Source of the DNA: Elusimicrobiota bacterium
GTDB taxonomy: Bacteria > Elusimicrobiota > Elusimicrobia > JACQPE01
NCBI GenBank assembly: GCA_016180815.1
Contig: JACPAN010000013.1
Span: 54,939 to 118,938 of the forward strand
DNA length: 64,000 bases
Direction of reading: 5' to 3'
The translations under genes were made by a program, and so were the position numbers. The notes beneath the pieces are model-generated. The model had not been told where the DNA came from. It made no database searches and saw only the letters and a list, made by a program, of their open reading frames with translations. Below are positions 49,876 through 51,100 of this stretch, piece after piece (the first letter of the stretch is position 1; the number at the start of each line of letters is the position of its first letter).

Positions 49876-49898
49876 TCATGTCATAATATATGACATGA
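49876..49898. promoter_or_regulatory. candidate operator: 9-bp inverted repeat overlapping the start codon of the HTH gene
   Basis: tcatgtcat-aatat-atgacatga; the ATG at 49895 lies in the right arm; AT-rich -10-like cataat within. Confidence 0.4.
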
Positions 49899-50440
49899 AG
49901 TATCTTATTGAGGTGGCCCAGGACAGCAAAGGCCGGCTCTACCTCAAAAGAGCGACGACCGCGGGCAAGCCCGCCTACAAACGAATCTGCACCTCTCAAG
50001 ACGCTTCGCGCAAACTGCAGCGATCAAGACGGCAAATTTACCGTCTTCTTGAGACGCAGGTCATTAAAACACACGGAAAATTTCTGGGTGAATGGCTTTT
50101 AGATTTAGAAGGTGTCGAAAAATTGGCGGGTTTGCCCAAATCTTTAAAAAAACCGCCCAAGAAATTTCAAGTCCTGTTTCCAGAATATCCCATCAACCAA
50201 ATTAACCCTTACCGTGACGTTAGGCTCATGCTCTCCCGCATCCTTGACCAAGGCACTCGCCAAGAGATGAAATGGGTACTGCGGCGATACCCGATTAGCG
50301 CCATCCGCGATTTCTTGAAACAGGACGGCTCACGGGTTCTTTCGGCTAAATCGTTGCGCCTTTGGAGTCTTTGTTTTGACGTGAAACCATCCTTGCCGCC
50401 AAAATGGCGCCTATCCGGACGCGCTTGGGGGGGAGCGTAA
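49895..50440 (+). CDS. putative HTH DNA-binding protein, candidate antitoxin partner of the downstream AbiEii-like gene
   Basis: Sits 6 nt upstream of the toxin-like gene; SRRQIYRLLE resembles an HTH recognition helix; start codon lies inside a 9-bp inverted repeat. Family assignment tentative. Confidence 0.45.
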   Translation: MKYLIEVAQDSKGRLYLKRATTAGKPAYKRICTSQDASRKLQRSRRQIYRLLETQVIKTHGKFLGEWLLDLEGVEKLAGLPKSLKKPPKKFQVLFPEYPINQINPYRDVRLMLSRILDQGTRQEMKWVLRRYPISAIRDFLKQDGSRVLSAKSLRLWSLCFDVKPSLPPKWRLSGRAWGGA

Positions 50441-50446
50441 ACCTTT

Positions 50447-51100
50447 ATGCCCTGGCATCCCCAAGCCATGACAAATGATTGCCGGCAAACTGCGCGCCTG
50501 CTTTTGACGCTGCCCCAATTAAAAAAATTTTATTTGGCCGGAGGCACGGCGCTGGCGCTTCAGTTTGGGCATCGGGTCTCCATGGATTTGGACTTTTTCT
50601 CCCCGGATTACCCGCTTGACCCTAGTCATTTGGAGGCTTTAAAAACGGGGCTTCGTAAGATAGGACGCTTCGCCATTCGCAAAGAAGAAGAAGGTACCCT
50701 GCACGTTGTTATTTTGGAAACGGCCGTCAGTTTTTTGCGCTACCCCTACCCTGCGCTGAAACCTCTTCTATCCTGGGAAGGCTTAGCGGTCGCTTCCTAC
50801 GAGGATATCGCATTGATGAAAATCGGCGCCATTATCGGGCGGGGAGCCAAAAAAGATTTTATCGATCTTTACACAATCAGTCAGAAAATCCCGTTAACGG
50901 ATCTATTGAAACTGTCCGAGCAAAAATTCAAGCATTCGGCCGACTTTTATCTGCAAGCGGCCAAGGCCCTTGTTTACTTTGACGACGCGGAATCAGACCC
51001 AAGCCCCAGGTTGCTTAAGCCCGCGCGTTGGCCCCAAATCAAAAAATACTTCGAGCAAGAAGTCCCCAAGGCCGTAAAAGTCATCCTCAAGTCTAGTTAA
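50447..51100 (+). CDS. AbiEii/DUF1814-like nucleotidyltransferase (type IV toxin-antitoxin toxin family)
   Basis: N-terminal LAGGTALALQFGHRVSMDLDFF matches the remembered AbiEii/DUF1814 signature (GGTAL...R-S-DLDF). Confidence 0.6.
   Translation: MPWHPQAMTNDCRQTARLLLTLPQLKKFYLAGGTALALQFGHRVSMDLDFFSPDYPLDPSHLEALKTGLRKIGRFAIRKEEEGTLHVVILETAVSFLRYPYPALKPLLSWEGLAVASYEDIALMKIGAIIGRGAKKDFIDLYTISQKIPLTDLLKLSEQKFKHSADFYLQAAKALVYFDDAESDPSPRLLKPARWPQIKKYFEQEVPKAVKVILKSS

Follow-up and report, generated by a model that had tools for sequence, protein, structure and literature searches.

Two adjacent genes in a 64-kb stretch of DNA from an Elusimicrobia metagenome-assembled genome, the whole of which is called the window below, probably constitute a self-contained, autorepressed toxin-antitoxin (TA) operon, as far as their sequences allow one to judge. 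The upstream gene encodes a 181-aa protein that combines an excisionase/MerR-type winged helix-turn-helix (wHTH) with a DUF6922 domain, and the downstream gene encodes a 217-aa nucleotidyltransferase (NTase) of the DUF1814 (AbiEii/MenT) family. A perfect palindrome covers the -10 promoter element and the start codon of the upstream gene. The gene order, the family of the putative toxin, the domain content of its partner, and the conservation of the promoter and palindrome are directly observed. The toxin annotation of the downstream gene is already public (NCBI product name: nucleotidyl transferase AbiEii/AbiGii toxin family protein), and the upstream product is listed there as hypothetical protein HYT79_07090. 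The role of the partner, the domain logic of the pair, and the conserved operator are unreported as far as the searchable literature shows, and no mention of DUF6922 (PF21956) was found in the literature searched.

The nucleotidyltransferase and its partner

An earlier note on this DNA had assigned the downstream gene to the AbiEii-type toxins and had singled out an N-terminal signature peptide. The profile search that it proposed bears this out: the 217-aa protein scores 64.2 bits against Pfam PF08843 (gathering cut-off 22.5), the match spans residues 23-210 and profile positions 10-232 of 238, and the signature peptide GGTALALQFGHRVSMDLDFF occupies residues 32-51. The motifs of the family were defined experimentally for AbiEii as hG[G/S]...DhD (motifs I and II), KLxAaxxR (motif III), and the Asp D192 of motif IV (PMC3985639). 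All four are found in the 217-aa protein, including the Arg ahead of the Asp pair, with A31-G32-G33 as motif I, R43-V-S45-M-D47-L-D49 as motif II, K125-I-G-A128-I-I-G-R132 as motif III, and D137/D140 as motif IV. Among 60 homologues of 38-60% identity, residues G32, G33, T34, H42, R43, S45, D47, D49, K125, R132, G133, D137, and D140 are invariant. The register R43-x-S45-x-D47-x-D49 is that of AbiEii R63-S64-T65-x-D67-x-D69 and of MenT1 T39-x-D41, and the Ser/Thr in this register is the site of auto-phosphorylation in MenT1 (PMC11375011) and in AbiEii (bioRxiv 10.64898/2026.01.19.700257). In addition, the spacing of 15 between K125 and D140 equals that between K137 and D152 of MenT1.

An AlphaFold2 model of the 217-aa protein (predicted local distance difference test, pLDDT, 97.1) was matched by Foldseek to JHP933 (E 1e-7), MenT4 (6Y56), and MenT1 (8AN4/8AN5), with probability 1.0 and template modelling (TM) scores of 0.5-0.6, and after these to other pol-beta-type NTases. 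Searches of PDB sequences with the single toxin sequence (phmmer) and with a profile found nothing, including no solved MenT, and neither protein of the cassette matched NCBIfam. The AbiEii models of PADLOC match the toxin weakly (best E-value 7.8e-6), and the locus is not callable as AbiE by this route. On every family feature that could be tested, the 217-aa protein is a member of the DUF1814 NTase family. By analogy with MenT1, MenT3, and AbiEii, we infer that it is toxic and acts on tRNA 3' ends.

The small HTH-containing gene that the earlier note placed 6 nt upstream is the open reading frame (ORF) at 49895-50440, which carries an HTH_17-type wHTH. Its first ATG is at 49895-49897, and no in-frame alternative start exists 5' of it. 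In the AlphaFold2 model (pLDDT 93.3), a unit made of a beta-sheet and a winged HTH (residues ~5-78) is followed by a six-helix bundle (residues ~89-177), and the N-terminal domain resembles the wHTH domains of Xis, BldC, and MerR. A word-indexed search with the partner returned a single relative, and an exhaustive search of representatives with a two-sequence profile (E<=1e-3) returned 676 clusters at 50% identity, of which about 60 are full-length (around 180 aa) and most others measure about 100 aa and match the C-terminal half alone. A profile search with the partner family retrieved 130 proteins, the majority already annotated with PF12728 and PF21956, and the same profile also recovers stand-alone DUF6922 proteins. 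DUF6922 was matched in 63 and HTH_17 in 58 of the 64 aligned family members, and homologues of the window protein at 41-48% identity pass the DUF6922 cut-off. Because its homologues pass, nearly all relatives match (63/64), and the profile recovers the stand-alone proteins, membership of DUF6922 is accepted for the window protein despite its own lower score; going by these profile comparisons, and for HTH_17 also by the winged-helix fold of the model, it belongs to both DUF6922 and HTH_17.

The partner is not AbiEi. No match was found between the 181-aa protein and the AbiEi Pfam families (AbiEi_1 to AbiEi_4 and AbiEi_3_N) or the AbiEi models of PADLOC, which returned a weak mad1 HTH match only. 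AbiEi_4, the HTH part of AbiEi, gives weak matches in just 7 of the 64 relatives, no structural match of the partner to AbiEi was obtained, and PDB searches by sequence and profile yielded only noise. The TA layout suggested by the earlier note is supported, but a canonical AbiE system is not, since the AbiEi profile search was negative and DUF6922 makes up the C-terminal half.

The linkage of the two genes recurs well beyond the window, where they lie on the plus strand with an intergenic gap of 6 nt. We collected 26 loci with HTH-DUF6922 relatives, mostly from Elusimicrobia genomes and from groundwater and sediment metagenomes, and searched all six-frame ORFs with hidden Markov models for downstream AbiEii-like genes. 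An AbiEii-like ORF lies directly 3' on the same strand in every HTH-DUF6922 locus with enough contig; the exceptions are L025, in which the match is fragmented, and L017 and L026, whose contigs end first. Conversely, looking up the three closest toxin homologues showed the HTH-DUF6922 type of partner upstream of each. The antitoxin stop and toxin start overlap by 4 nt (NTGA) in 15 of the 20 loci analysed. The antitoxins end in a conserved W-G-G(A), encoded by a GGGAGG/GGGGGG tract (L002-L024; window 50427-50437) that can serve as the Shine-Dalgarno sequence of the toxin gene, and because these codons coincide with that tract, the conservation of the protein end is perhaps driven partly by the RNA signal. 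In L025, the HTH-DUF6922 homologue (about 1880-2420) lies inside a 584-codon open frame, with a palindrome GTAACG-N13-CGTTAC nearby.

Stand-alone DUF6922 proteins (99-110 aa) are also followed by PF08843 genes of about 200 aa. One locus of the stand-alone type, L029, equals L030 (JGI metagenomes 3300044939 and 3300044959) with identical flanks, except that a clean 567-bp deletion has taken out its AbiEii-like gene and left the DUF6922 gene in place. In P0372 (235 aa, JGI), DUF6922 is fused in frame to the C-terminal half of AbiEii (profile positions 120-191); this protein was rejected as a Rosetta-stone fusion because the catalytic N-terminal half of the NTase is absent, and it is more likely a decayed locus. 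Both variants fit a toxin-antitoxin logic. The neighbourhoods differ between loci and are in part rich in TA genes (ParE/PhdYeFM, MazE, and a second AbiEii in L003; NTase/HEPN in L004), as expected for a mobile cassette. A further DUF6922 gene, in L031, occurs without a toxin in a PfkB/Lar_N neighbourhood in which L027 has both genes.

The palindrome over the promoter and start codon

The inverted repeat that the earlier note had seen across the start codon is present, although its arms and spacer had been drawn less favourably than they are: the arms measure 11 nt and are 100% complementary (49875-49885 and 49889-49899), the spacer is 3 nt, and the antitoxin ATG lies inside the right arm. The proposal that it is an operator can also be refined, as it lies over the -10 element of a conserved promoter and the start codon stands at the predicted transcription start. 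Perfect palindromes with arms of at least 11 nt and loops of at most 5 nt number two in the window, whereas 30 Markov-shuffled sequences contain 0.1 on average, and the chance expectation of CATGTCATN5ATGACATG is 0.13 with three mismatches allowed. The other perfect palindrome, at 5376-5404 (CAAGGCCAAAGAAA-gcg-TTTCTTTGGCCTT-like, 13-nt arms), lies in a minus-strand ORF (4661-7060).

The motif is conserved, with its placement around the start codon unchanged, in 25 of the 26 homologous loci (23 non-redundant). None of the outcomes that the earlier note named as refuting it was seen. In the 182 kb of locus DNA fetched, it occurs once per locus and always at the start of the HTH-DUF6922 gene; L027-L031, DUF6922 loci without the HTH, lack it. 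When the 23 non-redundant loci were aligned on the start codon and the motif was placed by mismatch scanning, the consensus read as a TTGACA-like -35, a 17-nt spacer, TGT-CATA(A/C)T, ATATGAC, and ATG. The unit shared by these loci consists of the -35, the 17-nt spacer, and TGTCATAMTATATGACATG, and information content is high only there, with 1.68 bits per position in the core (-17 to +3) and 0.80 in the -35 box (-36 to -31), compared with 0.14 further upstream and 0.34 in the first 42 coding bases. TGTCATA(A/C)T is nearly invariant, and the antitoxin proteins of the same loci are about 25-50% identical to that of the window. The exact 25-bp palindrome of the window recurs in L026 and in L001, where the arms extend to 17 nt, and arms of 13 nt and 12 nt are found in L004 and L007, respectively. 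The dyad is retained in 89% of cells, mostly through invariance. The centres of the two ATGnCAT half-sites are 12 bp apart and read T/A in most loci, with a symmetric swap to A/T in L004 (= L012) and L023. The recognition helix, (K/R)SRRQ(I/V/L)YR, is nearly invariant across the family and so parallels the DNA motif. Co-variation between HTH residues and the operator was considered and rejected: a right arm reading TGTCAT mostly goes with a YRD motif, but the loci that have it form one clade, which makes the association inseparable from phylogeny.

The distance from CATAAT to ATG, 7 nt in the window, is the same in most loci; in L004, whose promoter has perfect TTGACA and TATAAT boxes, it measures 5 nt. 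At the -35 position, homologous loci have TTGACA, TTGATT, or TTGCCA. No Shine-Dalgarno sequence or purine-rich tract was found between the -10 element and the antitoxin ATG, and because the -10 element ends 7 nt before an ATG that lacks a Shine-Dalgarno sequence, the cassette mRNA is probably leaderless, with its +1 predicted to fall on the A of the ATG or beside it. Leaderless transcripts of autoregulators are known from lambda cI, transcribed from PRM, and from many TA operons of Mycobacterium tuberculosis. The cassette would resemble these in having its start codon at the predicted +1, no Shine-Dalgarno sequence, and a putative autoregulator gene, the transcription start being predicted here from the -10/ATG spacing alone.

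Related IMG/VR phage contigs contain three exact matches to the motif (TTGTCATAyTATATGACATG), at 111-129 and 2391-2409 of one 7.6-kb contig (L033) and at 8924-8942 of another (L032). A virus-borne cassette was rejected because these matches are intergenic, with no HTH-DUF6922 or AbiEii gene nearby, and they are probably an unrelated AT-rich palindromic promoter or operator of phages.

These features can be assembled into a mechanism. Through its N-terminal excisionase/MerR-type wHTH, a dimer of the partner would bind the palindrome ATGTCATA-N3-TATGACAT, and because this site takes in the extended -10, discriminator, and start codon, the bound repressor would cover the -10 and the +1 and exclude RNA polymerase. 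Antitoxins commonly autoregulate in this way, and in function the arrangement would parallel AbiEi acting on its inverted repeats (PMC3985639). The toxin would be translated from the Shine-Dalgarno sequence that lies within the antitoxin gene at its 3' end, and in most relatives via the stop/start overlap; it would then add nucleotides to tRNA 3' ends, on the analogy of MenT1, MenT3, and AbiEii, and translation would stop. The DUF6922 domain would neutralise the toxin by binding it, possibly inducing auto-phosphorylation of Ser45. Such induced auto-phosphorylation, as in those same three toxins, is a reasonable candidate mechanism, and simple sequestration is the alternative. Because DUF6922 occurs alone beside these toxins, it is likely to be the neutralising module, with the HTH as an added regulatory module. 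The wider proposal, that DUF6922 is an antitoxin domain for DUF1814 toxins and that one Elusimicrobia-centred lineage of it is fused to an excisionase-type HTH recognising a near-invariant palindrome over the -10, the transcription start, and the start codon of a leaderless operon, is in our judgement evenly balanced.

Table 1. Positions of the cassette genes, their domains, and the associated signals in the window
Feature	Position	Strand	Basis or remark
Putative antitoxin/autorepressor gene, HTH_17 + DUF6922, 181 aa	49895..50440	+	Pfam, relatives, AlphaFold2 model
N-terminal winged HTH, residues ~27-78	49973..50128	+	Recognition-helix motif (K/R)SRRQ(I/V)YR nearly invariant
C-terminal helical DUF6922 domain, residues ~89-177, putative neutralising module	50159..50425	+	PF21956
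Putative toxin gene, DUF1814 (AbiEii/MenT-type) nucleotidyltransferase, 217 aa	50447..51100	+	PF08843, motifs, model
Shine-Dalgarno-like GGGGAG for the toxin gene	50430..50435	+	Within the antitoxin gene at its 3' end, 11 nt before the toxin ATG
-35-like hexamer TGGAAT	49859..49864	+	17 nt upstream of CATAAT; weak in the window
Extended -10, TGT-CATAAT	49879..49887	+	TG at 49879-49880, hexamer at 49882-49887; within the palindrome (left arm and centre)
Perfect palindrome TTCATGTCATA-ata-TATGACATGAA, putative HTH-dimer operator	49875..49899		Spans -10, discriminator, and start codon
Terminator-like hairpin GTCGGGCCTTTGGGCCCGAT then CTTTTTAGTC	51143..51172	+	43 nt 3' of the toxin stop; within the 121-nt repeat

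Weighing the proposed operon against other explanations

Several points weigh against the reading as an autorepressed TA operon. We infer DNA binding, repression, the leaderless start, toxicity, neutralisation, and phosphorylation from layout and homology, and DUF1814 proteins are neither all toxins nor all linked to antitoxins (PMC3985639). The window partner itself falls below the Pfam cut-off of 27 for both of its domains, with 24.8 bits for DUF6922 (residues 93-139) and 19.6 bits for HTH_17 (PF12728; residues 33-75), and the DUF6922 domain has no PDB relative in sequence, profile, or structure searches that would hint at its mechanism. The conserved motif is absent from L025, the sole exception among the 26 loci. 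The half-site centres are non-complementary in some loci (T/T in L008 and L010; G/T in L022 and L024), and the dyad is kept mainly via invariance, not covariation. Because the left arm is the -10 element, part of its conservation is explained by the promoter alone. Finally, the -35 of the window is poor, and a sigma-70 scan of the window did not call the cassette promoter; the extended -10 may compensate for the -35.

Some of these points would lead one to think that the 20-bp core is simply a strong promoter with a leaderless initiation signal (extended -10, discriminator, and AUG) and contains no repressor site, its palindromic look stemming from the self-complementary ATGnCAT. We regard this as unlikely. 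Every ATGnCAT half-site is indeed itself a mini-palindrome, TGT-CATA(A/C)T and the left arm match exactly, the start codon ends the right arm, and strict dyad symmetry is broken at the centre base in the four distinct loci just named. However, the discriminator TATGAC is conserved like the -10 (about 2 bits), which no promoter function needs, and the symmetry reaches past the core in L001, L004, and L007. A bare promoter also fits poorly with the confinement of the motif to HTH-bearing loci and its absence where DUF6922 stands alone, and with the near-invariant recognition helix. It could instead be that the palindrome acts as RNA, forming a hairpin in read-through transcripts that buries the AUG or terminates, and so insulates the cassette. 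This is very unlikely, since the left arm is not transcribed from the conserved promoter, so that no such hairpin can arise in the mRNA of the cassette itself. A 71-nt stretch around the palindrome is predicted to fold at -18.5 kcal/mol (z = -2.36), and a terminator scan flags a 12-pair stem followed by a T-containing tail, although the stem is AT-rich and the T tract poor. G/T at the variable pair in two loci would be tolerable as G-U, but it is the sequence that is conserved rather than the pairing, with any double change in only 3 of 11 pairs. A hairpin could act as a secondary effect alongside operator function.

A different objection is that there is no TA pair at all, and that a non-toxic NTase, which modifies RNA or a small molecule, is accompanied by HTH-DUF6922 as its transcription factor or regulatory subunit. 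This would be in keeping with the top structural match, JHP933, whose entry description carries no demonstrated toxin activity, with the aminoglycoside nucleotidyltransferases among the structural matches, with the DUF1814 proteins that lack a linked antitoxin (PMC3985639), and with the weakness of the PADLOC AbiEii matches. We nevertheless consider it quite improbable, because the catalytic and phosphoacceptor residues of proven toxins are all invariant and the bicistronic layout is tight: the smaller regulator comes first, and the genes overlap by 4 nt in most loci. The variable, partly TA-rich neighbourhoods (L003 and L004) and the loss or truncation of the NTase with retention of the partner (L029 and P0372) also argue for a toxin-antitoxin pair.

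Known systems, genomic setting, and significance

The cassette exhibits considerable similarities to AbiE of Streptococcus agalactiae and Lactococcus, but there are also clear differences. Both are bicistronic, with the antitoxin first and a DUF1814/PF08843 NTase with motifs I-IV second (PMC3985639), and both have the R-x-(S/T)-x-D-x-D register in the active site (bioRxiv 10.64898/2026.01.19.700257). As in the AbiE antitoxin, an N-terminal DNA-binding wHTH is joined to a C-terminal neutralising domain, both functions being putative here, and the inverted repeats in the AbiE promoter, which serve negative autoregulation (PMC3985639), have their counterpart in the putative operator palindrome. 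Unlike in AbiE, the partner is not COG5340/AbiEi, its C-terminal domain being DUF6922; the toxin is shorter (217 aa), and its interval from G33 to D47 comprises 13 residues (T34-M46) compared with 15 in AbiEii. The operator also differs, with one 25-bp palindrome over the -10 and start codon as opposed to two 23-bp repeats upstream of a leadered gene with a ribosome-binding site. Therefore, although it has the antitoxin-first bicistronic layout, the cassette is not AbiE in the strict sense, because its antitoxin is not AbiEi. It is best classed as a DUF1814 toxin joined to a new partner family, HTH_17-DUF6922, with a distinctive, conserved promoter-operator that is probably leaderless.

The MenAT1 and MenAT3 systems of M. 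tuberculosis are comparable in that DUF1814 toxins are paired with antitoxins of unrelated families (PMC11375011, PMC10435456). The first catalytic Asp comes two residues after the phosphoacceptor Ser/Thr (T39/D41 in MenT1, S78 in MenT3, and S45/D47 here), and the best fold matches include MenT1 and MenT4, a moderate similarity with TM scores of about 0.5-0.6. The toxin here has no sequence similarity to any solved MenT that phmmer or a profile could detect. Three antitoxin families have been described for MenT toxins (PMC11375011); for DUF1814 genes, the partners described belong to COG5340 or COG4861 (PMC3985639). The putative DUF6922 antitoxin family has no detectable relation to solved antitoxin structures or to the AbiEi Pfam families, including MenA3/4, a comparison that leaves MenA2/COG4861 aside. 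JHP933 of Helicobacter pylori (PDB 4O8S and 4OK0), the best structural match of the toxin (TM 0.55-0.58), is of similar size (225-232 aa) but shares just 16-18% identity with it. On the partner side, Xis (Pukovnik, 4J2N) and BldC (6AMK) are small stand-alone HTH_17-type proteins that act on direct or head-to-tail repeats, unlike the HTH here, which is fused to DUF6922 and faces a palindromic site.

Within the window, each cassette gene is single-copy, and the annotation is mostly ordinary, with a mobile TA cassette among secreted-protein genes. The neighbours are two M48-like peptidase paralogues and small ORFs, many with signal-peptide-like N-termini, in agreement with the description in the earlier note of a region devoted to secreted proteins; a Pfam search of the small ORFs gave no match. 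The paralogous HExxH proteins lie at 48498-49340 and 52629-53468 (Peptidase_M48, E 1e-10 and 5.5e-6), and the DNA identity between the two segments is 74-80%, which suggests that a duplicated set of secreted-protein genes surrounds the TA cassette. A 121-nt direct repeat, with copies at 48441-48561 and 51095-51215 (89% identity), contains a GTTAAC-type palindrome, AGTTAACCAAyArTTAACT, and a terminator-like hairpin, CGGGCCTTTGGGCCCG then TCTTTTT. Its second copy begins at the toxin stop codon, and the 2.65-kb unit bracketed by the copies holds the TA pair together with one M48-like peptidase and a membrane ORF; the repeat may be a terminator/promoter cassette that has been used again, or a scar of recombination. 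An Rfam search of the whole window returned nothing at gathering thresholds. Elsewhere in the window, two giant plus-strand ORFs occur, at 21331-39546 (6071 aa) and 9171-14654 (1827 aa).

The DUF1814 toxins, including AbiEii and MenT, are among the most abundant NTases of defence and TA systems, and a current question is how unrelated antitoxins all inactivate them via induced auto-phosphorylation. A further partner family without a known fold relative would be a useful test of this model, and if DUF6922 triggers auto-phosphorylation of Ser45, the mechanism would extend to an additional antitoxin fold without a detected relative. If the present reading is true, DUF6922, with its roughly 676 clusters of stand-alone proteins and HTH fusions, would gain a function, and the cassette would be a portable module that packs a promoter, an operator, and a translation start of its own into about 45 bp. 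The 20-bp unit of operator, -10, and start, conserved across proteins of 25-50% identity, is a regulatory part that is directly testable, for example with a variant of the palindrome altered in the right arm only (TATGACAT to TATCTGAT). In addition, this unit would provide a simple DNA signature for locating such cassettes in metagenomes.

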